From NCBI RefSeq assembly GCF_048403405.1, contig NZ_CP183129.1: a stretch of DNA of 64,000 nt; one strand, 5' to 3'. Shown here piece after piece: positions 29,449 to 45,777 of the stretch. The position numbers and the translations under genes are program-made. Source of the DNA: Escherichia coli. GTDB taxonomy: Bacteria > Pseudomonadota > Gammaproteobacteria > Enterobacterales > Enterobacteriaceae. The stretch's first letter is position 1. Every line of letters starts with the position of its first letter. Below the pieces are notes generated by a model that saw only the letters and a program-made list of their open reading frames with translations, searched no databases and was not told where the DNA came from.

Positions 29449-31622
<2,174 letters not shown>

Positions 31623-31720
31623 TACGTATCCTTATACCTGAAATCTTCGCAAGTATGCCTGGCCGCGAGATTATGGCACACTTGTCCGGTTAACTCTCGT
31701 CTCATACAGGTAACACAAAC

Positions 31721-31765
31721 GTGAAAATCCTTGTTGATGAAAAAAATGATGACTTAATTTATTGA
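31721..31765 (+). pseudogene. pdxB: Probable 5' remnant of pdxB (first ~7 codons, then a stop)
   Basis: GTG AAA ATC CTT GTT GAT GAA reads VKILVDE, resembling the PdxB N-terminus MKILVDENMPYA recalled from K-12, then diverges into AT-rich sequence and stops after 14 codons. Confidence 0.4.
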
Positions 31766-31819
31766 TGTAAAAGGATTTATGTCAGCGCGTGTCCACGCAG
31801 TGACCACATTTTCGAGTTA

Positions 31820-31861
31820 CAGATAACACAAAGCCCGTTTTCACGGGCTTTGTGTTATCTG
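31820..31861. other. Perfect 18-bp-stem hairpin just inside the element junction
   Basis: CAGATAACACAAAGCCCG-tttt ca-CGGGCTTTGTGTTATCTG, exact reverse-complement arms; lies 30 nt downstream of the stop of the 31891-32784 gene. Confidence 0.8.
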
Positions 31862-31890
31862 TGATTGTGGCTAAGCCACATGATTTAATA

Positions 31891-32784
31891 CTATTTCCAG
31901 TTACAAGCAGCTTGAAGCGGTTTTAGCGCGTTTGACAGGCCGTTTAAATTGAAAGTTGCACTTACGGGGCTCTCATTATAAGGCGTTATTTTTGTATACA
32001 TTTTGCTTGAGTTGGCTAGTTTTCGGATGAAATCAATGTCATTACCTTTATAAAAAACAGCCTTTGTATCTGTAGATACTAGCCAGTTTCGCTCAACTGC
32101 TTTCTGTTTATCAAGGCGATAAAGCATGCTGGTTTGTTCAAGGCCTAAATATACATCCCAACTAAGAAATACTTCGGTTTTCTTTTCTCGGCAAGCTATA
32201 AAAAGAGTAGGAGTAACCGCTTCTCCAAATGGAGTTCTGATATAATCATCACTTTCTAACGATAAAATTACATTTTTCGAATCATCAATTGGCGATGTAG
32301 TAATGGATGTGTGCCATTTTCCTACATCTGTGGCTTTCTCTAATTTTGATTCAGCTTGAGCGATTTTATCCTGTGGGAATAGTTTATCGTAGCAGTTTAG
32401 TCTGGCTTCTTTATCATTTTCTGCACGACATTTAGATATCTCAGAAAGATTTGGTTGCTGAGCCTCTGTTGTTACTGGCTTTTCCGTTTTAGATTTTGAG
32501 TTTACAGATGGAGTAAATGTTGGAGAAAAGAAACGATCATAACAAGATAAACGTCTATCATCATCTTTCTCATCAGGGCATTGATCTCTGCTTTCGAATT
32601 TTTCAGCAACTTTCGTTCGAGTCGGTTGTATTGACTTATCGTAACAAGAAAGTCTGTCTTTATTATTTTCTATTGCTCGGCACTGGAGTACTGCATTGAA
32701 GTTCTTATGTTCAGTTGCTGCTTGAACAGGCAGTACACTAATTGATATAAATGATGCACCTATAGAAAAAATTATATTTTTCAT
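31891..32784 (-). CDS. AT-rich secreted protein with three Cys-Tyr-Asp repeat motifs, unknown function
   Basis: 297-aa ORF with signal peptide (MKNIIFSIGASFISISVLPVQA) and three repeats RLSCYDK / RLSCYDR / RLNCYDK; visibly AT-rich. Confidence 0.7.
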   Translation of the reverse strand: MKNIIFSIGASFISISVLPVQAATEHKNFNAVLQCRAIENNKDRLSCYDKSIQPTRTKVAEKFESRDQCPDEKDDDRRLSCYDRFFSPTFTPSVNSKSKTEKPVTTEAQQPNLSEISKCRAENDKEARLNCYDKLFPQDKIAQAESKLEKATDVGKWHTSITTSPIDDSKNVILSLESDDYIRTPFGEAVTPTLFIACREKKTEVFLSWDVYLGLEQTSMLYRLDKQKAVERNWLVSTDTKAVFYKGNDIDFIRKLANSSKMYTKITPYNESPVSATFNLNGLSNALKPLQAACNWK

Positions 32785-32788
32785 TTTA

Positions 32789-33121
32789 TTATCCCTTTGG
32801 TTTAGTAAGAAATACTAAAATTCCGATAATGATATCGCCAATAACCCATAAGCTTCCAATGGTAATTAAACCTAAGCCTGTACCAATAACTGCACCGGCT
32901 TTTTCGGCATCGGATGTGGCATTATTTATTATTTCACTAGTGCCTCCTAGTCCAACTAAAAGCGTATAGATCATAAAAATATTAAATAATATAAAAACCC
33001 ACTTAATGATCCGTCCAAAAAATGAACGCTTAAGTTTTTGCAGTTGTTTACCACAAGCAGGGCAATACAATGCTGAATCGCTCACCTCTTTCTGGCATTC
33101 AGGACATTTGATTAATGCCAT
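32789..33121 (-). CDS. Zinc-ribbon membrane protein, unknown function
   Basis: 110-aa ORF with N-terminal CPEC-x12-CPAC zinc ribbon and two hydrophobic helices; 4 nt upstream of the repeat-protein gene, forming an operon. Confidence 0.65.
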   Translation of the reverse strand: MALIKCPECQKEVSDSALYCPACGKQLQKLKRSFFGRIIKWVFILFNIFMIYTLLVGLGGTSEIINNATSDAEKAGAVIGTGLGLITIGSLWVIGDIIIGILVFLTKPKG

Positions 33122-33383
33122 GTAATCCGCCTCCTTTGGATTAATACGAGTTGATATTTGTTACAAAACATTTTGATTTTATCAGATTTATTTTTATTGA
33201 TAAGTGTCAATTGATTAGCTGGTATAGAGTGAGGCATATAGAAGGGCTGGTCTGTATCAGTATGTGATGCAAAAATCCCACAGTTTCATGGAATTTTTGC
33301 ATTTAGAGCTGTGAGATAGGGTGCCTTATCGACCTTACCCTGGCAACCGATTGACGGGGGATTACTCCCCCGTCGCGGTTTCC

Positions 33384-33524
33384 TTACTGCTTACACTGTA
33401 AGAACGCCGCAAACTCCGCTCCCCAGAAGCTCATCCGTATTTCACACAGCGAACCGTGCAGCATCCAGATGATGAGGATTACCGTCACGCAGAACGTGAT
33501 GGCCGTAAGCGATTTTTGCGACAT
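33384..33524 (-). CDS. Hok/Gef-family type I toxin-like small membrane protein
   Basis: 46-aa ORF MSQKSLTAITFCVTVILIIWMLHGSLCEIRMSFWGAEFAAFLQCKQ with AAGGAG 7 nt upstream; carries the Hok signature SLCEIR-6 residues-E-x-AAF after a TM helix. Confidence 0.6.
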   Translation of the reverse strand: MSQKSLTAITFCVTVILIIWMLHGSLCEIRMSFWGAEFAAFLQCKQ

Positions 33525-33714
33525 AGCGCTTGCTCCTTTTTCGGGGAGGCGCTAACCTATCACTTGCTTAGGGTAGACGGTTAGGGCCTCGGTTAAACAA
33601 AAGTGTTTTCCGGGGCCTTTCCACATCCGGCCATCGGGTATTCCCTCCGACCATCAGCCGAAAGGCACCCGCGCGTAATCTATCGCTTTTTTGTTACTCC
33701 GGCAATTCTGCCTG

Positions 33715-33975
33715 TTAATTCTGAGGTAAAGGCAAACTCATCTGATTGTTTCCCCTGTGTGAAGCTGGCAGCTCATGCCACGGGATACCTTCTGAAGAGT
33801 GAACGCCGGAGGCGTGTTTTGATGTGAATTTATGGAAGGCTTCCAGTGTTGAGAAGCATACGCCGCATTCCAGATTGTTACACTGGTAATACTTTTGCCG
33901 CACGGTGTTTGAATCATTTTCCGGACGACTGGTGCGGATACGGGCAGATGCGCCACAAAGCGGACAACGGAACAT
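33715..33975 (-). CDS. ogr: Ogr/Delta-family zinc-finger late transcription activator
   Basis: N-terminus MFRCPLCGASARIRTSR with a second Cys pair (CNNLECGVC), as in P2 Ogr. Confidence 0.85.
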   Translation of the reverse strand: MFRCPLCGASARIRTSRPENDSNTVRQKYYQCNNLECGVCFSTLEAFHKFTSKHASGVHSSEGIPWHELPASHRGNNQMSLPLPQN

Positions 33976-34017
33976 AGCGACCTCCCTTAACGTGGTGCTG
34001 CCGCTATTCTAAGTTGC

Positions 34018-35127
34018 TCACTCTGTTTCCGCTATCCATTCCGGGATTTTTGCCTCAAGCTCAAGCTGCGTGGTAAAGCCGCTGTTATCAATAGTGTGCT
34101 CGGCTTTTGCAATGATCCAGTCCTGATTATCAATCTCGCTTTTAAATCCTGTTACCGTACCATGCATTTCGGGGTAGAGTTCTGCACGTCCACGCGCCAG
34201 CGTGATGGAGAATGATGCGGCTCCGCGTTGTAGTTGCTGCCACTTTGCCGCCGCTGCGCGTCTTGCTGCCTGTTCGTTCTGATAGGTCTTGCGTAACACA
34301 AACACATTGCCTTCCGCGCCTTCCATATAATCACCTTCACGGCTGCTGCTTTTCTCCTTTTGGGGTTTTGGTGGTTTGCGGCGTTTCACGCTGACTTTTT
34401 TCTTTTCCCCGTAATTAAGATCAAGCCAGTAGGCGCGTACCCCCGTATACGCCTCGCGGTCAGCAATACGGAACTGATGGCGATCGCCGCTGCTGCGTGT
34501 AATGGCGAACGAGGGCAACGGCTGGCCCTGTGCGTTCACGCCACCACCTGGCATGATGAATAACAGATTGCCGCTTTTTACCGTGGTGATTGCGCCCAGC
34601 ATTTCCGCCATGCGCGTAAGGAAGGACATGTCGCTTTCTTCGGTCTGGTCGGCGTGGTCGATTTCGATATCCATCAGCATTTCGCTGATTTGTGGTTTCA
34701 GACCATACCGATGAGCGATGGCGGATACCACACGCTCAACGGTCACATCATGCCAGGACACCTCACGTTTAACGTTAAATTCATCCCGAAAATCTGCGCT
34801 TCTGGCTGAAACAGTCAGCCTGTCCGGCGGTCCTTCGTGAGCGATTTCATCAACAATGTAAGTGCCTTTTTCTGTCAGCGGTTCTCCTTTCCAGCCAATG
34901 AGAACCGTCAGGCGCGCGCCCCGTGGCGGTAGCTGCAACTGACCATCCGCATCATCCAGCGTGATGGTGAGCTGGTCCGCCTCAAATCCCCGGTTGTCGG
35001 TCAGTGACAGGCTCATCAGGCGCTCTGCCACGCCTGACAGCGTTTTACCCTCCGCGAGAATATCAAAATCCGGCATTTTCACGGGGTCTGTGCCCTGACT
35101 GAGCAATTGCATGGTGGTGTCGGTCAT
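34018..35127 (-). CDS. D: Phage tail protein D (late control gene D family)
   Basis: ATG at 35127 preceded by GGGAGGGAA; about 370 aa, gpD-like; the track ORF is extended 44 codons upstream. Confidence 0.8.
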   Translation of the reverse strand: MTDTTMQLLSQGTDPVKMPDFDILAEGKTLSGVAERLMSLSLTDNRGFEADQLTITLDDADGQLQLPPRGARLTVLIGWKGEPLTEKGTYIVDEIAHEGPPDRLTVSARSADFRDEFNVKREVSWHDVTVERVVSAIAHRYGLKPQISEMLMDIEIDHADQTEESDMSFLTRMAEMLGAITTVKSGNLLFIMPGGGVNAQGQPLPSFAITRSSGDRHQFRIADREAYTGVRAYWLDLNYGEKKKVSVKRRKPPKPQKEKSSSREGDYMEGAEGNVFVLRKTYQNEQAARRAAAAKWQQLQRGAASFSITLARGRAELYPEMHGTVTGFKSEIDNQDWIIAKAEHTIDNSGFTTQLELEAKIPEWIAETE

Positions 35128-35284
35128 CTGTTCCCTCCCTGTGCGGCATGGTCGCATGTGCGTGCGGAGGGGGTTACTGCTTTTTGTTGTCGCCGGGTCG
35201 GGAGAACGGCGCAGGGGTGAGATTACGCGCGTGGTGGGTGATGATTGTTGCCGAATCATTTAACGGATACAAGGGGCTGAAGCT

Positions 35285-36469
35285 ATGAGTGAAACTCGTT
35301 TTCATGGTGCCCGTGTTACGGAAAATACCGACCTGGTAACAGCGATTAACGATGTTGATTCCAGCGTTATCGGTATCGTGGCAACGGCGGATGATGCGGA
35401 CGCGAAGCTGTTCCCGCTGAATAAGCCCACACTGCTGACCCGCGTCAATGACGTGCTGGGAAAATGCGGGACAACGGGGACGCTTTATCGTGCGCTTAAG
35501 GCCATCGCAGACCAGGTGAGCACAAAGGTGATCGTCGTTCGCGTGGCTGAACACAAAGAAGAAGACGGAAAGACGCAGGATCAACTGGTTATCGGTGGTT
35601 CTGAGGATGACGGCAGCTATACGGGGATGTATGCGCTGCTTGTTGCAGAGCAGGATGAAAGCATCGGATACCGTCCGCGTATTCTGGCCGCGCCGGAGCT
35701 GGACACGGAGGCTGTAACAAAATCCCTGTGCGTGATTGCAGGTAAACTGCGCGCGTTTGTGTATGCCTCATGTCACGGCTGTAACACGATGGCTGAGGCG
35801 ATTACCTACCGCCAGAAATTCAACGAACGTGAGGTGATGCTCTTATGGCCGGACTTCATCGCCTACAACCCGAAAAGTGGCAAAAACGAAACGTTCCCCG
35901 CGCCTGCCTATGCGTGCGGCCTTCGTGCGTACATTGACCATGAGCAGGGCTGGCACAAATCGCTGTCCAACGTTCCGGTTAAAAATGTGCTGGGAATGTC
36001 CAGGCATGTGTTCTGGTCGTTGCAGGCCGAAGACAGCGATGCCAACAGCCTCAACAACAAAGAAATCACGACCATTATTCGTCGCAACGGGTTCCGCTTC
36101 TGGGGCAACCGCACACCGGAAACGAACGCCTACATCTTTGAGGTGTATACCCGAACCGCACAGGTGCTGGCTGATTCAATTGCGGAAGCGCAGTTTGAAA
36201 CCATCGACAGTCCACTGACACCTGCGAACGTGAAGGATGTTATCAGCGCCATCAGGGCAAAACTGGATTCGCTGGTTACTGCCGGGAAACTGATTGGTGT
36301 GGAGTGCTGGTATGACGTGGTGGATAACGGCACCACGAATTTACGTCAGGGACGTGTGCGTATTCGCTACAAATATACGCCTGTTCCCCCGCTGGAAGAC
36401 ATGGAGCTTTACCAGACGTTTACTGATGAATTCTTTGGTCCCGCATTTGCGGTGCTGGGAGGTGCCTGA
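35285..36469 (+). CDS. FI: Contractile tail sheath protein FI
   Basis: 394-aa product of P2 FI size; followed by tube, E/E', tape measure and U in P2 order. Confidence 0.85.
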   Translation: MSETRFHGARVTENTDLVTAINDVDSSVIGIVATADDADAKLFPLNKPTLLTRVNDVLGKCGTTGTLYRALKAIADQVSTKVIVVRVAEHKEEDGKTQDQLVIGGSEDDGSYTGMYALLVAEQDESIGYRPRILAAPELDTEAVTKSLCVIAGKLRAFVYASCHGCNTMAEAITYRQKFNEREVMLLWPDFIAYNPKSGKNETFPAPAYACGLRAYIDHEQGWHKSLSNVPVKNVLGMSRHVFWSLQAEDSDANSLNNKEITTIIRRNGFRFWGNRTPETNAYIFEVYTRTAQVLADSIAEAQFETIDSPLTPANVKDVISAIRAKLDSLVTAGKLIGVECWYDVVDNGTTNLRQGRVRIRYKYTPVPPLEDMELYQTFTDEFFGPAFAVLGGA

Positions 36470-36981
36470 TGGCTGTACCAAAACATCTTCGCTTTTTTAC
36501 GTTGTTTGTGGATGGTGAAAACGAAGTGGGTAAAGTGACATCCGTCACGCCGCCCAAACTGACGCGCAAAACCGACAGCTATCGTGGTGGTGGCATGATG
36601 GGGGCGGTAAGTATTGATCTCGGTCTGGACGACTCCGCGCTTGATGCGAGTTTTGTCATGGGGGGAGCTGTTCGTGCGCTGTTCCTTAAATATGGCGGCA
36701 CGATTGACGGCACGCTGCTGCGTTTTGCGGGTGAATACTACACCGATGCAGAAAGCGATCTGTATGAAATCGAGATGCGCGGGCGTGTGACGGAAATTGA
36801 TATGGGGGAAGCCAAACAGGGCGAAGCCACATCACACACTTACGCTGTCAAAAACACCTACTACAAGCTGAGCGTTAACGATCGCCCGCTGTGGGAAATC
36901 GACCTGTTGAACCACATCTACCGGAAGGACGGCAAGGACATTGTGCCTGACCGTATCCGTTCCGCGCTTGGGCTTGGCTGA
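36469..36981 (+). CDS. FII: Tail tube protein FII
   Basis: 170-aa product; start overlaps the FI stop (TGATG). Confidence 0.85.
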   Translation: MAVPKHLRFFTLFVDGENEVGKVTSVTPPKLTRKTDSYRGGGMMGAVSIDLGLDDSALDASFVMGGAVRALFLKYGGTIDGTLLRFAGEYYTDAESDLYEIEMRGRVTEIDMGEAKQGEATSHTYAVKNTYYKLSVNDRPLWEIDLLNHIYRKDGKDIVPDRIRSALGLG

Positions 36982-37036
36982 TAAGTAATATGCAGGCGGC
37001 GCAGTGCGTCGCCTCTGACTGAAAAGGAGACAACTG

Positions 37037-37411
37037 ATGAAAGACATCGATACTGAAACCCGGAATAACACCGTGGCGGATGATGTGACGGCAGGTGAGG
37101 ATATGGCTGTCGAACGTGGCGTAAAACTGACCCGACCAATTGAGCGTGGTGGCGAAAAAATCACGTATGTGGAGATCACCGGGGCTATTGAGCAGGCTGG
37201 ATCCCTGCGTGGTCTGTCGCTGTCTGATGTGCTGAATCTGAAAGCGGATACCATGTTTACGCTGTTGCCTCGCGTGACCTCGCCACGACTGGATGAAGTG
37301 ATGATTAAAAAAATGTCGTCACGCGATTTTATTCAGTTGTGCGCTGTGGCTGTAAATTTTATGAGCGAGCCAGACTCTGGCGCGAAGAGCGTGCAGGAGA
37401 CGGCAGCGTAA
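37037..37411 (+). CDS. E: Tail assembly chaperone E
   Basis: 124-aa ORF with AAAGGAG upstream; an overlapping -1 frame ORF follows, the E/E' arrangement of P2-type tail chaperones. Confidence 0.75.
   Translation: MKDIDTETRNNTVADDVTAGEDMAVERGVKLTRPIERGGEKITYVEITGAIEQAGSLRGLSLSDVLNLKADTMFTLLPRVTSPRLDEVMIKKMSSRDFIQLCAVAVNFMSEPDSGAKSVQETAA
37307..37313 (+). promoter_or_regulatory. Candidate -1 programmed frameshift site (A7 run) for E+E'
   Basis: AAA AAA A in the E frame. The -1 frame has a TAA at 37306-37308 and is open from 37309 to 37575, so slippage on Lys codons would fuse E (to ...VMIKK) to the E' extension. Confidence 0.5.
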
Positions 37412-37575
37412 TCACCCTGGTGTGCTTTGAGCACATCGAAGATCTGGTGGCGGATATTGCCGCCATTTTTAACTGGTCGCCCGCCGAAATCTTCATGATG
37501 ACGCCCGGCGAAGTGGTTAGCTGGCGCGAGCGGGCGGCACTTCGCAGCGGGAATGCAGATAATGAAGACTCTTGA
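37309..37575 (+). CDS. E' extension (-1 frame) of the tail chaperone, expressed only by frameshifting
   Basis: Open -1 frame with no own start or RBS context; ends at a TGA overlapping the start of T. Confidence 0.55.
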   Translation, partial: KNVVTRFYSVVRCGCKFYERARLWREERAGDGSVITLVCFEHIEDLVADIAAIFNWSPAEIFMMTPGEVVSWRERAALRSGNADNEDS

Positions 37576-40369
37576 TATCCGGGTCGCTTTCAGCGCCGTT
37601 GACAGGCTGACCCGGCCTGCCGAAAACGCCCGCCGCCTGATGGGGCAGTTTGGTGACTCCATCCAGCGAACGCAGGGGGCGATCAAAAATCTCGAGCGTC
37701 AGGCGCGTTCATTTGAGCGCGCCCGTGACGCTGTCAGTAAAGCGGATGCTGGCATCGTGAAAGCACGACGCCAGCTTAACGCCCTTAATCAGTTACAACG
37801 CACGGGTACAGTGCTCAGCGAAAAACAACAAAAGCTGATGCAGCAGTTAAGCACCCGGCTTGAACGCCTGAATGAATCGCGCACACGGGAAATTCAGAAA
37901 ATGCGGGAGCTTGGCGGAGAGCTGAAACGCCACGGCATTTCCCTGACAGGCAGCGATAACACCATCCAGCAGGCCATCAGACGCACCGAACAGTACAACA
38001 ACCAGCTTGAACGCGAACGGCAGGCGCTTGCGCGTGTAACGCGGGCGCGTGAGCGGTATTCGCGCGCGCAGGAAACAGCGGGAAAACTGAAAACAGGTGG
38101 TGCGCTGGCAATTGGTGCGGCAGCGGCGGGCGGCTATGCTGCCGGGCGTTTTTTGCAGCCTGCGATCGGGTTCGGCAAAGAGATGTCCCGCGTTCAGGCA
38201 CTGACGCGAATCGACCAGAACAGCCCGCAGTTTAAGGCGCTGCGTGAGCAGGCGTTAAAACTTGGCTCTGAAACGCAGTTCACCGCAGGCGATGCCGCCA
38301 GTGGACAGGCATTTCTTGCAATGGCTGGCTTCACTCCGCAGGCCATTCAGGCTGCGCTTCCCGGCGTGCTGAGCATGGCAACGGCTGGCGGTATGGATCT
38401 CGGCGAGACGGCAGATATTGGCTCAAATATCCTGACGCAGTTCGGCCTTTCTGCTGACCAGATGGACCGGGTCGGTGACACACTCACCGCAGCGTTTACC
38501 CGTACCAACACTGACCTTCGCGCACTGGGCGAAACCATGAAATATGCAGGTCCGGTGGCGGGTAAGCTGGGAATATCGCTGGAGCAGGCCGCAGCGATGG
38601 CTGGCGTGCTGGCGAATATGGGCATCAGAGGGAGTGATGCCGGGACGGCAATGCGTGCCAGCCTGGCTCGTCTGGCATCACCGCCAAAGGCGGCGGCAGA
38701 AGCTCTGAAAGAGCTGGGCGTGTCCGTCTCGGATGCCGGGGGCAAAATGCGCCCGATGGAGGATGTGCTGGCCGACCTTTATAAAGCCACCCGTAAATAC
38801 GGGGAAGTTGACCGGGTATCGTTCTTTAAGGACATTGCCGGAGAAGAGGCTTTCACATCGTTTATGGCGCTCGTTGATGCAGCGGGTGACGGTTCCTTAC
38901 CCAAACTGAGAAAAGAACTTGAAGGCGCGCGCGGTGAGGCTGAACGCACAGCAAAGGTTATGGCCAACAACCTTGACGGCGATCTGAAATCACTCGGCAG
39001 TGCATGGGAAGGGTTGCGCATCCGCATTGCAGATCTGATTGACGGTCCGCTGCGTTCTGTCACGCAGTGGCTCACGCGGGTGGTCTCAAAAGTGACGGCA
39101 CTGGCGCAGGCCCATCCGGCACTGACGCGCCAGTTACTGATAGCGGGAGGTGCACTGCTGGCGACAACAGCAACGGTTGGTTCGTTGTCTCTGGTTATTG
39201 GGGTGCTTCACGGGAAGCTGGCTACGTTACGTCTCGGTTTTTCTCTCCTGACCGGATCAATGAATGCTGTCAGGGGCCTGCCAGCACTATGGGGAATGGT
39301 GACGGGTTCCGTTTCTTTACTGGGAGGCGCTATCGGGGCGCTGATCAGTCCGGTTGGTCTTATCGTGGCTGCGCTTGCCGGAGCTGCCGTTCTTATCTGG
39401 AAATACTGGGATCCCATCAGGGCATTTTTTGCCGGGGTGTTCAGCGGGATTATGGAAAGGCTGACCCCGTTGCGCGAAACCTTTGAACGGTTTGGTCCTG
39501 TTTTTGACGCAATCGGAAGCGGGATCAGCCAGGTGTTTAACTGGTTTAAATCGCTGCTGTCACCGATGGAGTCCAGCAAGGAAACGCTGGATAAATGTAC
39601 CAGTGCTGGCGAGATATTCGGTAACGTTCTTGGCGGTGCGTTACAGCTTGTTCTGACACCTGCAAAAATGCTACTGGATACGCTGGCGTGGATACTTGAA
39701 AAACTTGGCGTCCTTCCGGATGAAGCGGAAAAGGCGCGCAAGAAAATCGAAGACGCACAGCGTGCGGCCATTCTTCAGGACAAGGTTGCCTTGCTTCAGG
39801 GGGACCTTGCGAAAATCAATCCGCCGAAGCCTGTGGAAAATGGCAATGGCACCGGAGGTGATAAACCCAAAGACAACAAACCGCTCACAGACAGCAATAC
39901 CGGGACGCTACGCAGACTCAGCAAAATTGCTGATAACACAGGTAAGCTGGTTGATGAGACGAAAAAACGCATTGGCCCTGGCGATATTGTCTTTAAGAAC
40001 CTGCCCCGCGCACTTGCTGTTCGTGGGGAGTGGCAGGAGCGGAAGATTGCGCAGGTCAGTAAGCCTGCCCCCGCAATTAATATCACACCCGTAGTCCCGG
40101 CTCCGCTGCCTCCGGCGCTGGTCCCTGTTGTTGCGGCCAGCTCCCGCCCGGTGGCGGAGGCCATACGATCGCCAGTGGCATCAGTTCCTGCAGCTTCCCG
40201 TAATCGGGAGCCTGCTGTCTCCAGATTTGGCGGTGAAATTCATGTTCATCTGCATAACGTTGTTACGCAGAATCCCCGCGAACTGGCGAAACTGGTCGGT
40301 GAAATGGTCAGGGCAGAGATGGAACGGCGCGCCCGTGCCGGACGTGGCAGTTTTTACGATAAAGATTGA
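37553..40369 (+). CDS. T: Tail tape measure protein T
   Basis: 938-aa product with coiled-coil N-terminal half and Gly/Ala-rich hydrophobic central segments; the start could instead be the ATG at 37562. Confidence 0.85.
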   Translation: MQIMKTLDIRVAFSAVDRLTRPAENARRLMGQFGDSIQRTQGAIKNLERQARSFERARDAVSKADAGIVKARRQLNALNQLQRTGTVLSEKQQKLMQQLSTRLERLNESRTREIQKMRELGGELKRHGISLTGSDNTIQQAIRRTEQYNNQLERERQALARVTRARERYSRAQETAGKLKTGGALAIGAAAAGGYAAGRFLQPAIGFGKEMSRVQALTRIDQNSPQFKALREQALKLGSETQFTAGDAASGQAFLAMAGFTPQAIQAALPGVLSMATAGGMDLGETADIGSNILTQFGLSADQMDRVGDTLTAAFTRTNTDLRALGETMKYAGPVAGKLGISLEQAAAMAGVLANMGIRGSDAGTAMRASLARLASPPKAAAEALKELGVSVSDAGGKMRPMEDVLADLYKATRKYGEVDRVSFFKDIAGEEAFTSFMALVDAAGDGSLPKLRKELEGARGEAERTAKVMANNLDGDLKSLGSAWEGLRIRIADLIDGPLRSVTQWLTRVVSKVTALAQAHPALTRQLLIAGGALLATTATVGSLSLVIGVLHGKLATLRLGFSLLTGSMNAVRGLPALWGMVTGSVSLLGGAIGALISPVGLIVAALAGAAVLIWKYWDPIRAFFAGVFSGIMERLTPLRETFERFGPVFDAIGSGISQVFNWFKSLLSPMESSKETLDKCTSAGEIFGNVLGGALQLVLTPAKMLLDTLAWILEKLGVLPDEAEKARKKIEDAQRAAILQDKVALLQGDLAKINPPKPVENGNGTGGDKPKDNKPLTDSNTGTLRRLSKIADNTGKLVDETKKRIGPGDIVFKNLPRALAVRGEWQERKIAQVSKPAPAINITPVVPAPLPPALVPVVAASSRPVAEAIRSPVASVPAASRNREPAVSRFGGEIHVHLHNVVTQNPRELAKLVGEMVRAEMERRARAGRGSFYDKD

Positions 40370-40375
40370 GGAGTC

Positions 40376-40870
40376 ATGGTCATGATGATGATCTACGGCA
40401 TGTTTGTTTTTGAGCTGCGCACACTGCCGCATCAGCAGTTACAGCAAAACAAAAGCTGGCGGCATGTGAAAAATGAACGCGTTAACCGTTCAGCAAGCTG
40501 GCAGTATATAGGTGCAGGTGATGATCGCATTGTGCTTTCCGGCGTGCTTTATCCTGAAATTACAGGTGGCGAAGTGTCGCTTTCGTTGCTGACCACGCAG
40601 GCATATACAGGACGCCCCTGGCCTCTGATTGATGGTGTCGGGCAGATTTACGGCATGTATGTGCTGACTGAAACGAATACGACCCGTTCCGAGTTTGATC
40701 GCTACGGTAAGGCGAAAAAGATAGAATTTTCACTGACCCTTGAACGCTGTGATGAGGATTTGCGGGAGCGCCTGCAATCCTCATCATTCAGCGATATGCT
40801 GTCCGGCTTCAAAGATAAGGTGACATCATCTCTTAACAGCGCGGCCAGTTCAGTTAAAGGGCTGTTCTGA
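40376..40870 (+). CDS. U: Tail protein U
   Basis: 164-aa product (MVMMMIYGMFVFELRTLPHQQLQ...), gpU-like. Confidence 0.8.
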   Translation: MVMMMIYGMFVFELRTLPHQQLQQNKSWRHVKNERVNRSASWQYIGAGDDRIVLSGVLYPEITGGEVSLSLLTTQAYTGRPWPLIDGVGQIYGMYVLTETNTTRSEFDRYGKAKKIEFSLTLERCDEDLRERLQSSSFSDMLSGFKDKVTSSLNSAASSVKGLF

Positions 40871-40883
40871 TTTAACACAAAAA

Positions 40884-40916
40884 CCGCTAATGGTCAGATT
40901 AGCGGTTATTTTGTTT
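40884..40916. terminator. Terminator hairpin between convergent U and invertase genes
   Basis: CCGCTAAT-ggtcag-ATTAGCGG followed by TTATTTTGTTT on the plus strand, with a T-run also on the minus-strand side; overlaps the invertase stop. Confidence 0.65.
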
Positions 40917-41493
40917 CCTGACTCTTCTCTATTGTTCCGATTGATTCTCCTGCGGGGTGGTAACGATAAATCGTCGATATACCAATGCCGTAAATTATTG
41001 CCAGTTGTTTTCTGTCGTGCCCGTTTTTGATCAGCCTTGCTATTTGCTCATGCTGTTCTTTTGTCAGCTTCGGTCGACGTCCGCCTGTGCGCCCCCGTGC
41101 GCGTGCTGCCGCCAGTCCGGCCAGTGTACGTTCAACAATTAATTCACGTTCCATTTCAGCCAGGGCACCCATCACGTGGAAGAAAAAACGCCCCATTGGA
41201 GAAGATGTATCTATGCTGTCGGTCAGACTGCGAAAATTAATTCCTCGCTCCCGTAGTTCCCCGACGAGAGAAATCAGATGTTTCATGCTTCGCCCGAGGC
41301 GATCCAGTTTCCAGACAACCAGCGTGTCACCTTTTTGAAGGCGCTTTAAAGCGCGTTTTAATCCCGGTCGGTCTGTCTTTGTCCCGCTTAATTTATCTTC
41401 AAATATTTGTTCACATCCTGCACAAACAAGAGCGTTTCGTTGCAGGTCTGTATTCTGGTCATTTGTTGATACCCTTACATAGCCAATCAGCAC
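40906..41493 (-). CDS. pin: Serine DNA invertase (Hin/Gin/Cin/Pin family)
   Basis: GTG at 41493 gives MLIGYVRVSTNDQNTDLQRNAL... with the catalytic Ser in GYVRVST and a C-terminal HTH; the track ORF starts at TTG 41511. Confidence 0.9.
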   Translation of the reverse strand: MLIGYVRVSTNDQNTDLQRNALVCAGCEQIFEDKLSGTKTDRPGLKRALKRLQKGDTLVVWKLDRLGRSMKHLISLVGELRERGINFRSLTDSIDTSSPMGRFFFHVMGALAEMERELIVERTLAGLAAARARGRTGGRRPKLTKEQHEQIARLIKNGHDRKQLAIIYGIGISTIYRYHPAGESIGTIEKSQETK

Positions 41494-41547
41494 GCTGAAT
41501 CTCCCGTCCAAAAGCGCAAATCATGCCATGCAGGCCGGAAACGGCCA

Positions 41548-41575
41548 TTATCTAAAACCTCGGTTTACAGGAAAC
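41548..41575. other. gix/pix-type recombination site (left)
   Basis: TTATCTAAAACCTCGGTTTACAGGAAAC, differing at one base (position 6, T vs C) from the Mu gix sequence TTATCCAAAACCTCGGTTTACAGGAAAC as I recall it. Confidence 0.75.
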
Positions 41576-42581
41576 GGTAAACAAGGCTGGTAACGCCGTC
41601 CAAAAGACAGGCGATATCTTGTCCGGTGGGCTTACTTTTGAAAACGACTCAATCCTTGCCTGGATTCGGAATACTGACTGGGCAAAGATTGGTTTTAAAA
41701 ATGATGCCGACAGCGATACTGATTCATACATGTGGTTTGAAACAGGCGACAACGGCAATGAATATTTCAAATGGAGAAGCAAACAAAGCACCACAACAAA
41801 AGACCTGATGAATCTTAAATGGGATGCTTTGTCTGTTCTTGTTAAAGCCCTTTTCAGCAGTGAAGTAAAAATATCGACAGTCAATGCACTGAGGATATTT
41901 AATTCATCTTTTGGTGCTATTTTTCGCCGTTCTGAAGAATGCCTGCATATCATCCCGACACGAGAGAATGAGGGAGAAAATGGTGATATAGGGCCACTAC
42001 GCCCCTTTACGCTTAATCTCAGAACTGGTCGGATAAGCATGGGGCATGGTCTTGATGTTACAGGGGATATATTTGCAAACCGTTTTGCAATTAACAGTAG
42101 TACCGGCATGTGGATTCATATGCGTGACCAGAATGTTATTTTGGGACGCAATGCGGTATCCACCGATGGTGCACAGGCATTACTTCGTCAGGACCATGCT
42201 GATCGCAAATTTATGATTGGTGGGCTGGGAAATAAGCAATTTGGCATCTACATGATTAATAACTCAAGGACAGCTAATGGCACCGATGGTCAGGCGTACA
42301 TGGATAATAACGGGAACTGGCTTTGCGGTTCGCAAGTTATTCCCGGCAACTATGGCAATTTTGATTCCAGATATGTGAAAGATGTTCGACTTGGTTCACA
42401 GCAATATTATGGAGTGAACAACTGGCAAACATGGAATTTCCAGTGCCCGTCAGGTCATGTATTGTCTGGTATTAATGTTCAGGATACAGGGTCCAACTCT
42501 GCCGATAATATAGCGGGCGTTTATTACAGACCCGTTCAAAAGTATATAAATGGCACCTGGTATAATATAGCGAGCGTTTAA
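41576..42581 (+). CDS. Alternative tail-fiber C-terminal segment (Sv'-like), silent in this orientation
   Basis: Frame continues in phase through the left site ([14 protein letters not shown]...) and has a TAA inside the site, so there is no own start; ends [12 protein letters not shown] like the active fiber end. Confidence 0.7.
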
Positions 42582-42582
42582 T

Positions 42583-43110
42583 ATGATGCACTTAAAGAAC
42601 ATAAAAGCGGGTAATGCTAAAACACTGGAACAGTATGAGTTAACAAAGAAGCACGGAGTCATCTGGCTTTACTCTGAGGACGAAAAAAACTGGTATGAGG
42701 AAGTGAAAAACTTTCAGCCAGACACCATAAAGATTGTTTACGATGCAAATAATATTATTGTCGCCATCACTAAAGATGCCTCCACGCTTAACCCTGAAGG
42801 TTTTAGCGTCGTTGAGGTTCCAGATATTACAGCCAACCGCCGCGCTGATGATTCAGGAAAGTGGATGTTTAAGGATGGAGCTGTAGTTAAACGGATTTAT
42901 ACGGCAGACGAACAGCAACAACAGGCCGAATCACAAAAGGCCGCATTGCTTTCCGAAGCTGAATCAGTCATCCAGCCGCTGGAACGCGCTGTCAGGCTGA
43001 ATATGGCAACAGACGAGGAACGCACACGACTGGAAGCATGGGAACGCTACAGTGTTCTGGTCAGCCGTGTGGATACGGCAAATCCTGAATGGCCACAAAA
43101 GCCTGAATAA
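42583..43110 (+). CDS. Tail fiber assembly protein, alternative copy
   Basis: 175-aa product [23 protein letters not shown]..., paralogous to the 43139-43672 gene. Confidence 0.8.
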
Positions 43111-43115
43111 AAATT

Positions 43116-43135
43116 AAGGCCCGCTATCGGGCCTT
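43116..43135. terminator. Hairpin between the convergent tail fiber assembly genes
   Basis: AAGGCCCG-ctat-CGGGCCTT. Confidence 0.5.
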
Positions 43136-43138
43136 GTC

Positions 43139-43672
43139 TCATTCAGGTTGTTCGGGAAATGTTACTGGCAGGCTGGAGGTGTCTGTAGATTCGACTTTCT
43201 GCGCATAGAGCATCCACTCGGTTAATTTTGGTTTATTCTCGTCGGAAATGATGCCCAGCCGTAGCTGTGAGTCCCATAGCTGGGTTTTATCCCTGACAAG
43301 TTGCAACAGGCTTTGCTTTTCATTTTCCGCCTGCTGCCTCTGCTCTTCCTCGGTATAAGTTCGCTTTACCACTACGCCATCTTTGAACATCCATTTACCC
43401 GAAATGTCAGCACGGCGATTTGCTGTAATATCAGGTAATTCAACGACGCTTGCGCCTTCCGGATTAATTGCTGAAACATCCTTTTCAATACAAATAATAA
43501 CGCCGTTATGGTCATAGACCATTTTTAAAGTGTCTGGCTGGAAATTCTTTTGTTCCTCATACCAGTTTTTTCCATCCTCTGAATAAAGCCATTTGATGTT
43601 AAATTGTTTCGTTAGCTGGTATTGCTCTTTTGTTTTAGGGTTGCCAGCAGTAATGTTTTTTAAGTGCATCAT
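43139..43672 (-). CDS. Tail fiber assembly protein (G-like), active orientation
   Basis: 177-aa product [23 protein letters not shown]..., immediately downstream of the fiber gene. Confidence 0.85.
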
Positions 43673-43674
43673 CG

Positions 43675-45777
43675 TTAAATACTCCCCGCGTTATACCACG
43701 TCCCATTAATGCAATACTGAATTGGCCTTGCCTGAGTTGTATCAATTAATTCATCACGGTTTCCGTTAACTGAACCCGTAACGACATAACCTGACCTGTC
43801 AGACCAGCCGGGACCATTCCATGTCTGAACAGATGACAGACCGCCAAGGCGAATACCTGTAATAAACCTTGAGTTACATTCTGCCTGCGTGTATGCACCA
43901 ACATCTCCCGCTGAGGGTTTGCGGGTCGTGGTGTAAAACTCTGACCAGTCAGCTTCAAAGCCATAACCATCACGCGCTGAACGATAAAAAATGCCGCCGT
44001 TCCTGTAATTCACGCGGAACTGTACAGCAGGGCAACTCCCCGCATTCATATTGAAATGAAGAATTAACGTTGATGCGCCGGTGATTCTGGCGCAATAAAC
44101 TCCGCTGTTCCAGTTCCAGCCAACAGCTTTATCATTTCCGACAGTGCTTCCTGTTTGCCCTAAAGCAAATGCAGGTTGTTGATTTTTCGTGTTGTAGTCT
44201 CGTCGCCAGCCAGGAGCGTAAGCATCACCATGATTGATATAAGTGAATTGAGCGTTAGTAATTCCGCCACCGCTGGACGTGCTCGGCGTGGTAACGCGTA
44301 TGGTCATTGCGCCGCGAGTGCCAATAACTTCCACCACAGCACCTGCAAGACAAATATTTCCGCAACCTGTATCTGTAATGACCTTATTATTTGCATAAGC
44401 CCATGAGCCTTTGCACATCCAGTAAGGATGGTTAAATGCTCCCTGACTCTCCAGCCACGAAATAAATTGCGCGGTTGTCCAGACCTGACTATCGCCACCA
44501 ATATTCAGCCATGCGCTATATGCGCGGCAGGCACCAATATTTTTGGTGAAGGTATCTTTTCCTGGAATATCTGCGCCGTTCTGGTTTTTCTGTAATGCGC
44601 CAGAAGCCTGATTTACCGTTTCCTGTAAACCGAGGTATTCGATAACGGCAGCAACGGTCGATTTCGCAAGAATATCCCGCCCGACTTTTGTCAGGGTTGC
44701 CAGGCTGGCGACATCATTCCCCGTAAAATACGGAAACCTGTCTGCCGCAGTAGCAAGCCCGGCCAGCGCCGTCAGGGTGGCATCTTTCGGTTGCTTACCC
44801 GCAAGCGCTTTAGTCATGGTGGTCGCAAAATTCGGGTCGTTTCCCAGCGCCGCCGCTAACTCGTTCAACGTATTCAGTGCGTCAGGCGACGAGTCTACAA
44901 GTGCGGCAATCGCGGCCATCACATAAGCCGTGCTTGCGATCTGAGTATTATTAGTCCCTTTTGGCGCAGTTGGCGTTGTTGGCGTTCCGGTCAGTGCAGG
45001 ACTATTTAAGGGCGCTTTCTTGTTCGTTTCATCCATTACCGCCTTAACCGCTTTTGGCGTCGCAGCCAGCGTTTCAGATGTGCTGTTGGTGGCGCTACTG
45101 AGCTGAACTATCCCTTTTCGCGCAGTGGTAGCGTCCTGTGCGGTGTATTTGCCATTAGCCAGGTCATATGCCGCCTTAACAGCCTTTGGCGTTGCCGCAA
45201 GCGTTTCAGACGTGCTGTTAGTGGCGCTGCTAAGTTGAACAAAGCCTTTTGCGGTCAGCGAGGCGTCCGGGTGACGTCGTGAGTGTTCATGCTCTTTCAG
45301 TTTGTCATCCACGTAATCCACTGTGGCCATCACCATGGTGTTATCCACGGTAAGCGCCACGGTGGCAGTGCTGGATACGGTCAGAATGGTGCGAAATGTT
45401 TGTGCACGTCCTGACCCTTCGGCAACGGCTGGCTTGTAACTTTCGGCAGTATTGCCTACTGCGATTAAATCGCCGTGCTCATCAAACACACCAATTTCCC
45501 GGATCCAGAATCCGCCCGTTTCTGGAGGAATAACCAGCTCCGCAATAATGCGGTTCTGATGTGTTGCGTCCAGTATGACGCGATTAACAGTGTGTCGCCA
45601 CACCTCATGCACCAGACGGGTCTGCTTACTGTCTGGTGTGGGCAACGTGCCGCCACCGTCGCCCACGGCCATATGAGTCAGGCGGACAGGCTTACCATCT
45701 GGCGCGGCTGCCTGAGCTAATTTTTTTGCACCCGTATCGGTGATAACGGTTTTAAATTTTCGTGTTGTGGTACTCAT
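43675..45777 (-). CDS. H: Tail fiber protein H, with its C-terminal ~320 codons inside the invertible segment
   Basis: 700-aa ORF; reading frame passes through the right recombination site at residues [11 protein letters not shown]. Confidence 0.85.
44618..44645. other. gix/pix-type recombination site (right), inside the tail fiber gene
   Basis: GTTTCCTGTAAACCGAGGTATTCGATAA, the reverse complement of the left site with two mismatches. Confidence 0.75.
45041..45268. repeat. Tandem direct repeat (two copies of ~96 bp, 132-bp period) inside the tail fiber gene
   Basis: Encodes [23 protein letters not shown] twice, 44 aa apart. Confidence 0.8.

Follow-up and report, generated by a model that had tools for sequence, protein, structure and literature searches.

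A two-gene cargo operon encoding a zinc-ribbon membrane protein and a VasI/TagO-related protein in a P88-like prophage of Escherichia coli

This study concerns a pair of genes in a 64,000-nucleotide stretch of Escherichia coli DNA (contig NZ_CP183129.1 of assembly GCF_048403405.1; this whole stretch is referred to as the window), in which gene 1, predicted to encode a zinc-ribbon membrane protein, and gene 2, predicted to encode an exported repeat protein, are located at one end of a P2-like prophage. In phage T4, superinfection exclusion involves Imm, a two-helix membrane protein, and Sp, a periplasmic protein, which act between adsorption and DNA entry and are not encoded as an operon. Sinorhizobium has an essential IalB-domain protein, RgsG, which acts in the periplasm at growth zones, and IalB of Bartonella has been reported at the inner membrane. 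Among the TagO/VasI proteins of type VI secretion systems (T6SS), VCA0118 of Vibrio cholerae is needed to kill amoebae and contributes to bacterial killing, but is dispensable for secretion of Hcp and VgrG (PMC3166118). DrpB (YedR) is an accessory divisome protein of E. coli with both termini in the cytoplasm (N-in/C-in) and two helices joined by a periplasmic loop some 20 residues long, and its recognisable homologues were found by tBLASTn to be confined to E. coli and a few close relatives (PMC7648144). In multicopy, DrpB activates the Rcs phosphorelay via the periplasmic domain of RcsC (bioRxiv 10.1101/2024.08.29.610257).

The genes studied here have been named before. RefSeq designates the products "TagO" and "zinc ribbon domain-containing protein", and ORF1 of Citrobacter phage phiSM was listed, without experiments, as a "T6SS VasI family protein" and putative virulence cargo (PMC6456863). 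Both genes were found at 97-99% identity in phiSM, in Escherichia phages PhiR44_2 and 500465-2 and in Xuanwuvirus P884B11, and at 64-72% identity in Klebsiella phages, including 3LV2017. Both families and the listing of gene 2 are known already, whereas the lysogeny-operon pattern described below and the occurrence of gene 2 together with a DrpB-like partner appear to be undescribed. An earlier note on this DNA, made from the sequence alone, did not recognise the pair as a described system; this still applies to the pairing, but not to gene 2, which is recognisable both from Pfam family PF11319 (VasI/TagO) and from the phiSM listing.

An accessory operon inside a P88-like prophage

The gene pair was found to be an accessory two-gene cargo operon (moron) inside an att-delimited P88-like prophage. 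In the window, a stretch of E. coli chromosome (fadJ ... fabB, yfcJ, flk) gives way to a P2-like prophage belonging to Xuanwuvirus (P88-like, Peduoviridae). To map the att site, the flk-pdxB segment of K-12 was compared by BLAST with the window and with the integrase-side junction of strain CRE1540, which contains the same insertion. Homology to K-12 ends at window position 31743, and therefore the sequence from 31744 rightwards is prophage, including both genes of the pair, a hok/gef-family toxin gene, ogr and gpD; the integrase end of the prophage lies beyond the window, beside pdxB. The earlier note had placed the pair between an element junction and the prophage, but the mapping locates it on the phage side of attR, between ogr/hok and the attR site in pdxB. 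The possibility that the pair is a remnant outside the prophage was ruled out by the same mapping. In window coordinates, the features of this prophage end are as follows.

31724..31743, no strand: attR core, 20 bp common to both prophage junctions, within the first pdxB codons
31819..31862, minus strand: perfect 20-bp hairpin, 29 nt past the gene 2 stop (-35.4 kcal/mol, z -9.6; no U tract)
31891..32784, minus strand: gene 2, predicted exported repeat protein, 297 aa (ORF)
32789..33121, minus strand: gene 1, predicted zinc-ribbon membrane protein, 110 aa (ORF)
33130..33136, minus strand: Shine-Dalgarno sequence AAGGAGG, 8 nt upstream of the gene 1 ATG, read from the sequence
33176..33203, minus strand: candidate promoter-like site TTATCA-16-TGnTAAAAT upstream of gene 1, from a consensus scan
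33384-33524, minus strand: hok/gef-family toxin gene (MokW-like; PHROG 251, E 2.5e-23), between ogr and gene 1
33715-33975, minus strand: ogr, between gpD and the hok side of the prophage end

As the earlier note had described, the two genes are co-oriented and 4 nt apart, and the unit is AT-rich. Both lie on the minus strand, with TAA-taaa-ATG at the gap. The G+C content of the unit (31891-33121) is 0.363, while the remainder of the prophage has 0.531 and the window 0.507, and its GC3 is 0.26-0.28. Comparison with the 92%-identical copy in phage P884B11 gave dN/dS values of 0.14 for gene 2 and 0.39 for gene 1. These values, together with the presence of homologues of 40-98% identity with the same order in several genera, argue against chance ORFs, and by this measure both genes are real and under purifying selection.

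The pair was present in 236 of 5426 complete E. coli genomes, compared with 848 containing the adjacent gpD-ogr segment, and in about a quarter of related E. coli prophages; phage P88 was shown to contain hok but not the pair. The earlier suggestion of a moron at the terminus of a P2-like prophage is supported by these counts: the pair lies inside the att sites, is present in free phage genomes, varies among close relatives and deviates in base composition. A widespread core-genome pair with a housekeeping role, which would have spoken against this suggestion, was never seen; only the zinc-ribbon gene was found alone in some chromosomes.

The order in phage genomes is ogr-hok-(cargo)-attP-int, and the cargo therefore travels with the att/int module. 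A comparison of integration sites at five E. coli loci showed that the region between hok and att contains no cargo in the sibling prophage at serS, a 93-aa ORF in the one at tRNA-Leu, and com together with a DNA methyltransferase gene in the one at raiA, while the sibling at ytfP contains convergently oriented genes for a zinc-ribbon/TM2 protein and a 250-aa VasI-like protein; the pair studied here occupies the pdxB site. The cargo changes with the integration site, which suggests that it is exchanged together with attP and int as a single module. The hok/gef gene is kept in sibling prophages without the gene pair. At the site of insertion, the first codons of pdxB, the phage provides a replacement N-terminus, and pdxB is annotated as 1158 nt in the lysogen (L003, 16670-17827) compared with 1137 nt in K-12.

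The hairpin downstream of gene 2 probably represents a transcript end or stabiliser. On the other side of the operon, an inverted repeat, ATGCAAAAATTCC ... GGGATTTTTGCAT, is located at about 33265-33300 (minus strand), flanked by the hok terminator on one side and by the promoter-like site of gene 1 on the other, and could be an operator or a second terminator; a G+C-rich hairpin (33352-33375) lies downstream of the hok/gef gene. A search of Rfam at the gathering threshold detected nothing in 31000-35000. The P2 late-promoter element (TGT-N12-ACA) had no copy upstream of gene 1 or at the late-operon starts of this prophage, and this comparison was dropped as uninformative.

The position of the pair on the same strand as, and near, the late regulator ogr and tail gene D, together with a VasI-like gene found among the tail genes of Pasteurella phage Pmp14, could point to a role in the lytic cycle as a helper of lysis, entry or assembly. 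We regard such a role as highly improbable: P88 and about three quarters of the related E. coli prophages lack the pair, and its base composition differs from that of the prophage. Between the pair and ogr lie hok and two hairpins. Moreover, virions would not be expected to contain exported proteins, and homologues are found in the repressor or int operon of other phages.

Predicted products and their relatives

Remote-homology searches, as proposed in the earlier note, were run for the two products, and pointed to VasI/TagO for gene 2 and, by a profile match, to DrpB for gene 1; structure prediction, also proposed there, was applied to gene 2. The gene 2 product begins with a hydrophobic segment ending in VQA followed by A, and three repeats of the pattern C-x10-RLxCYD precede a C-terminal domain; hydropathy, repeats and domain conservation agree with the earlier description of a signal-peptide protein with three repeats and a C-terminal domain. 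Its features are as follows.

32719..32784, minus strand: predicted signal-peptide codons, residues 1-22, MKNIIFSIGASFISISVLPVQA followed by A; sole hydrophobic window, n-h-c layout read from the sequence
32635..32682, minus strand: CYD repeat 1, residues 35-50, CRAIENNKDRLSCYDK
32533..32580, minus strand: CYD repeat 2, residues 69-84, CPDEKDDDRRLSCYDR
32383..32430, minus strand: CYD repeat 3, residues 119-134, CRAENDKEARLNCYDK; the copy conserved in all family members
31894..32331, minus strand: beta-rich domain at the C terminus, about residues 152-297 (C198 and C294 conserved)

In an alignment of the gene 2 family, residues C119, R128, L129, C131 and D133 were invariant. Residues 118-296 matched the complete Pfam model of VasI (PF11319; E 3e-16, model positions 1-184 of 184), and the N-terminal motif of this model (its first about 26-36 positions) also matched residues 34-59 and 68-103. 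The score on the NCBIfam equivalog model for VasI (TIGR03360) was 75.9 bits, which is below the curated cut-off of 124.2, whereas TagO of the E. coli O157 T6SS-2 (ECs_0222), 26% identical to the gene 2 product, scored 257.4 bits. A weak match to Pfam IalB (PF06776) covered residues 223-289 (E 9.8e-4), the best Pfam and NCBIfam models being those of VasI. The family is large, with 6211 clusters at 50% identity reaching E <= 1e-3. An AlphaFold model built on 32 homologues showed the C-terminal domain at pLDDT 80-96 and each repeat as a helical hairpin. All Foldseek matches in AFDB50 belonged to the gene 2 family, being named TagO/VasI, "putative prophage exported protein" or, by mis-annotation, "DNA primase", and they gave no functional lead. 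On profile evidence, the gene 2 product is thus a divergent VasI/TagO (PF11319) relative with a predicted IalB-like fold. It is probably a Sec-exported periplasmic protein with disulfide-type hairpins and a predicted beta-rich domain of VasI/TagO-IalB fold.

The similarity to VasI raises the possibility that the exported protein is a T6SS accessory or virulence factor, which would supplement or tune the T6SS of the host and so aid the lysogen in competition or virulence. Besides the PF11319 match and the RefSeq name, this is supported by the CYD motif and the C-terminal C-x-W that the protein has in common with genuine TagO, by the listing as virulence cargo of phiSM and by the role of VCA0118 in the killing of amoebae and bacteria. 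Nevertheless, we consider it quite unlikely. The TIGR03360 score and the identity to ECs_0222 are low, and all close homologues examined were found in prophages and none in a T6SS cluster; T6SS genes were absent from every homologue context read (prophages, viral contigs and one chromosomal site in Photobacterium). Genuine tagO (ECs_0222) lies between clpV and tssA, and no counterpart of the constant zinc-ribbon membrane partner was annotated beside it in the one T6SS-2 cluster read (Sakai). In other temperate phages, VasI-like genes adjoin the repressor or int gene. Judged by its model score and by the contexts read, the gene 2 product is probably not a working part of a T6SS, and the T6SS label is unsupported for this clade.

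The gene 1 product is predicted to be an inner-membrane protein with a cytoplasmic zinc ribbon, as its hydropathy and positive flanks fit a protein that spans the membrane twice, with the N and C termini in the cytoplasm and some 20 residues forming a short periplasmic loop between the helices.

33053..33106, minus strand: zinc-ribbon codons, residues 6-23, CPEC-x10-CPAC (Pfam and alignment)
32948..33010, minus strand: predicted transmembrane helix 1 (TMH1), about residues 38-58 (Kyte-Doolittle), with the positive segment KLKRSFFGR before it and a conserved FILFN motif
32807..32884, minus strand: predicted transmembrane helix 2 (TMH2), about residues 80-105 (hydropathy), with a conserved T(K/R)PK tail after it

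The ribbon is formed by CPEC at residue 6 and CPAC at residue 20 (PF13240, 1.6e-7 in Pfam). The ribbon and both helices were already recognised in the earlier note, but the spacer is x10 and not x12 as given there. In an alignment of 26 gene 1 homologues with a mean column identity of 72%, C6, C20 and C23 were invariant and C9 nearly so. The protein was assigned to PHROG 6586 (E 1.7e-41); this PHROG and PHROG 1848 are labelled "unknown function".

The NCBIfam model of DrpB (NF038392) matched almost over its full length (positions 2-84 of 86; E 3.6e-4), with a score of 20.8 bits, below the curated cut-off of 50 bits. When the gene 1 family alignment was compared with a DrpB alignment by hhalign, a probability of 93.8% (E 1.7e-7) was obtained over 78 columns, although transmembrane composition can inflate such profile scores. 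Two motifs, RSxxGK..W.F before TMH1 and TRP(K/R) after TMH2, are common to the gene 1 family and DrpB, and weak precomputed matches to PF28000 (DrpB) were found for gene 1 homologues. Pairwise BLASTP against E. coli DrpB was not significant (E 1.1), so that it is the profile-profile comparison which carries the link. The membrane domain of gene 1 is thus probably homologous to DrpB.

This probable homology leads to an explanation in which the gene 1 product would mimic or perturb host DrpB and modulate envelope physiology via the divisome or via Rcs stress and capsule, with the exported protein as a co-factor; phage resistance would then be indirect, for example through capsule. The hhalign result with its flanking motifs, the full-length NCBIfam match, the PF28000 matches, the activation of Rcs through RcsC by multicopy DrpB and the essential role of RgsG at growth zones all argue for it. 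We nevertheless hold it to be unlikely, as the NCBIfam score is low, BLASTP was not significant and membrane helices inflate profile scores. Moreover, DrpB does not contain a zinc ribbon, and the gene 1 family reaches Alpha- and Betaproteobacteria and metagenome-assembled genomes labelled Bacteroidota, in contrast to the narrow range of recognisable DrpB referred to above. Rcs is not known outside Enterobacterales, which also counts against this explanation.

Coupling of the two genes and their context in other phages

The order ogr-gene 1-gene 2-att was found to be kept in prophages of Klebsiella, Pectobacterium, Enterobacter and Dickeya, at 42-70% identity and with 4-nt gaps or stop/start overlaps. 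Among the 80 best VasI-like loci in a survey of IMG/VR, a gene 1 homologue adjoined the VasI-like gene in 58, and nearly all of these 80 relatives on viral contigs, whose neighbourhoods were checked, were prophage cargo (all but a few). The number of CYD repeats in gene 2 homologues varies between one, two and three. One prophage was shown to contain, at the same locus, a natural fusion of a zinc ribbon, one transmembrane helix and a VasI-like domain, and in the P88-like E. coli prophage at the ytfP site the zinc-ribbon plus TM2 protein paired with the VasI-like gene is unrelated to the gene 1 product.

A second survey started from gene 1 homologues in genomes and comprised 49 species-level loci with 3691 ORFs. 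The motif C-x(6-14)-R[LIVM]xC[YF]D was detected in five of these ORFs, and all five were adjacent to the two-helix gene; one of them encodes a Mesorhizobium protein of which the remaining C-terminal region had no Pfam match. Of the ORFs adjoining the gene 1 homologue, 17 of 41 were exported or membrane-anchored by a crude hydropathy test, compared with a background of 16% (p 2e-4). A zinc-ribbon/DrpB-like membrane protein beside some exported or membrane-anchored protein is thus a recurrent theme. The partners seen include zinc-ribbon-anchored periplasmic domains and Cys-rich secreted proteins, and Pfam showed only zinc ribbons or the CYD motif in three partner proteins.

These data also bear on the possibility that two unrelated morons are merely adjacent, or that the pair is without current function. 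Each gene is often found without the other, and the locus is a variable cargo spot. However, the 4-nt gap or stop/start overlap is kept across genera, both genes are under purifying selection, a natural fusion exists, an analogous zinc-ribbon-TM partner lies beside a VasI-like gene in a second prophage type, and the CYD motif occurred only beside the two-helix gene in the 49 loci. We therefore consider a chance neighbourhood or a functionless pair very unlikely.

In six zinc-ribbon/DrpB-like cassettes viewed by eye, some small signal-peptide partners looked like a staphylococcal-type nuclease (L241) or seemed to have an Excalibur-type Ca-binding motif (L222, L072). A periplasmic nuclease beside a zinc-ribbon membrane protein would fit a role against DNA entry. 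In Pantoea, a 70%-identical zinc-ribbon gene was found by itself, with cueR on one side and copA on the other. It adjoins a P2-type att site and points toward it, an arrangement that would fit the past capture of such a gene into the ogr-att position by aberrant excision. Among the VasI-like homologues examined, the most distant one, from Photobacterium phosphoreum, is chromosomal and lies in neither a phage nor a T6SS cluster; an LprI gene (lysozyme-inhibitor family, PF07007) is located about 500 bp downstream of it.

The position of homologues in other temperate phages bears on expression. In Brucella phage BiPBO1, in Klebsiella phage ST11-VIM1phi8.1 and in three IMG/VR loci, the gene directly after that of a CI-type repressor is VasI-like. 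In three further loci, the VasI-like gene lies between a P2 C-type repressor gene and int, all three being co-oriented, and the C and int products are 47% and 45% identical to C and Int of the prophage studied here. In P2, C and int are transcribed from the lysogenic promoter Pc. Gene 1 homologues were likewise found directly after CI-type repressor genes (four loci), and after ogr with other secreted partners (two loci). The repressor or int placement of these homologues, which is classical for genes expressed from a prophage, suggests expression in lysogens. For this clade, the widely propagated name "type VI secretion system-associated protein TagO" misleads: the close relatives, and nearly all of the 80 on viral contigs, are prophage cargo at positions typical of lysogen-expressed genes. 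Both halves were found in prophages of enterics, Pasteurellaceae, Photorhabdus, Rhodobacterales, Brucella and Mesorhizobium, a breadth which argues against a niche-specific virulence role and favours a phage-related envelope function.

Some other features of the prophage were recorded. The tail genes FI-FII-E-T-U (35285-40870, plus strand) are divergent from gpD and ogr (minus strand) within the region 34018-40870, opposite to the canonical P2 order; as P88 and related prophages of Klebsiella, Pectobacterium, Enterobacter and Dickeya share this arrangement, it looks like a trait of the Xuanwuvirus-type lineage. A serine recombinase gene of the DNA-invertase type (NF009949, 2e-17; 40906-41511, minus strand) lies beside opposed ORFs, of which those at 41619-43110 (plus strand) matched no NCBIfam model and those at 43139-45777 (minus strand) take the place of the genes for tail-fibre assembly and for the tail fibre in the CRE1540 prophage. 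The region 40906-45777 may therefore include an invertible tail-fibre (host-range) segment. The interval from portal gene Q to replication gene A is a known defence hotspot of P2-like phages. Here it spans 57089-60376 and contains a 165-aa ORF, annotated as a DUF4760 protein in CRE1540, and a 280-aa ORF with a weak PADLOC match to Csx27 (1.6e-5), followed by ParM- and ParR-like partition genes (59098-60376, minus strand). The gpA ORF is unusually long (955 aa).

Proposed function and comparison with known systems

We tentatively favour, while giving it somewhat less than an even chance, the reading that the pair is a lysogen-expressed envelope module resembling superinfection exclusion and acting between adsorption and DNA entry; it is the breadth across Gram-negative hosts, favouring a generic phage-related envelope function, that led us to it. 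In such a scheme, the operon would be expressed from the prophage in lysogens and the two products would cooperate on the side of the inner membrane that faces the periplasm, where the membrane protein would probably hold or position its exported partner, with the Cys-hairpin motif as a candidate contact. The module would alter passage through the envelope, so that the lysogen would be shielded from incoming phages or injection devices at a periplasmic or inner-membrane step, a benefit that would be generic to Gram-negative hosts of temperate phages.

Several observations weigh against an exclusion-like module of this kind. Expression from the prophage in lysogens is inferred from the context in other phages. 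The number of sigma-70 promoter sites found by the scan in this region was not above that expected from shuffled sequence, and for this reason the promoter upstream of gene 1 remains a candidate. No PADLOC model matched either protein of the pair, and the sole homology link to "superinfection exclusion" was a weak PHROG match (E 1e-4) of a partner protein of a gene 1 homologue, not of the pair itself. Cargo adjacent to att in P2-like phages can also consist of virulence genes, as for ctx in phiCTX. In addition, 22 of the 80 VasI-like IMG/VR loci, the most divergent ones, were without a gene 1 homologue, only four of the 49 gene 1 loci had a VasI-like neighbour (45 had none), and the zinc-ribbon gene was found alone at apparently non-phage sites in Pantoea and Haemophilus. 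The frequent occurrence of gene 1 homologues alone, and of divergent VasI-like phage genes without them, indicates that the two proteins are not strictly interdependent.

A broader view, which we put forward as doubtful, is that the pair represents one case of a widespread undescribed class of two-part envelope cassettes of temperate phages, which would keep phage DNA or injection devices from entering. Interchangeable exported partners would then be docked by a conserved inner-membrane protein of the zinc-ribbon/DrpB-like type, the VasI-like ones via the CYD motif, and TagO/VasI of the T6SS and DrpB of the divisome would be chromosomal relatives of the phage modules.

Should the pair prove to serve exclusion or defence, the cargo of P2-like phages, whose known hotspots lie elsewhere, would gain a non-abortive mechanism that acts at the envelope. 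Three orphan families, VasI/TagO, IalB and DrpB-like, would then become accessible to functional analysis for the first time. If the pair instead tunes the divisome or Rcs, it would be an example of a phage copying an accessory cell-division protein of its host. The carrier phages phiSM, PhiR44_2 and 500465-2 are in culture, which makes the question directly testable.

Compared with known systems, the favoured exclusion-like module resembles Imm and Sp of T4 by functional analogy, as in both cases a small two-helix inner-membrane protein and a periplasmic protein with a signal peptide are phage-encoded. It differs in that no sequence or profile similarity to the pair was found and in that Imm and Sp do not form an operon. 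The likeness of gene 1 to DrpB extends to a length of about 90 residues, the N-in/C-in arrangement of two helices around a loop some 20 residues long, and the conserved motifs before TMH1 and after TMH2; by contrast, the phage protein has an N-terminal zinc ribbon and scores under the DrpB cut-off, and its family is far more widespread and largely prophage-borne.

TagO/VasI proteins (VCA0118 of V. cholerae, ECs_0222) are likewise exported, with about 200-250 aa, one N-terminal C-x10-RLxCYD and a homologous beta-rich C-terminal domain ending in C-x-W. The gene 2 product is only 26% identical to ECs_0222, falls under the model cut-off and contains three copies of the motif instead of one, and its gene is located in a prophage and not in a T6SS cluster, coupled to that of a zinc-ribbon membrane protein. 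Similarity to IalB (PDB 3DTD) and RgsG consists of the weak PF06776 match and the envelope location of these proteins, but the IalB model covers only residues 223-289, and VasI models score best; in the literature read, neither protein was seen in a phage setting. Although the published description of Citrobacter rodentium phiSM covers neither the zinc-ribbon gene upstream nor its coupling to ORF1 nor the lysogeny-operon pattern, ORF1 of this functional P88-like phage is the same gene as gene 2 (99%) and occupies the same position beside attP.

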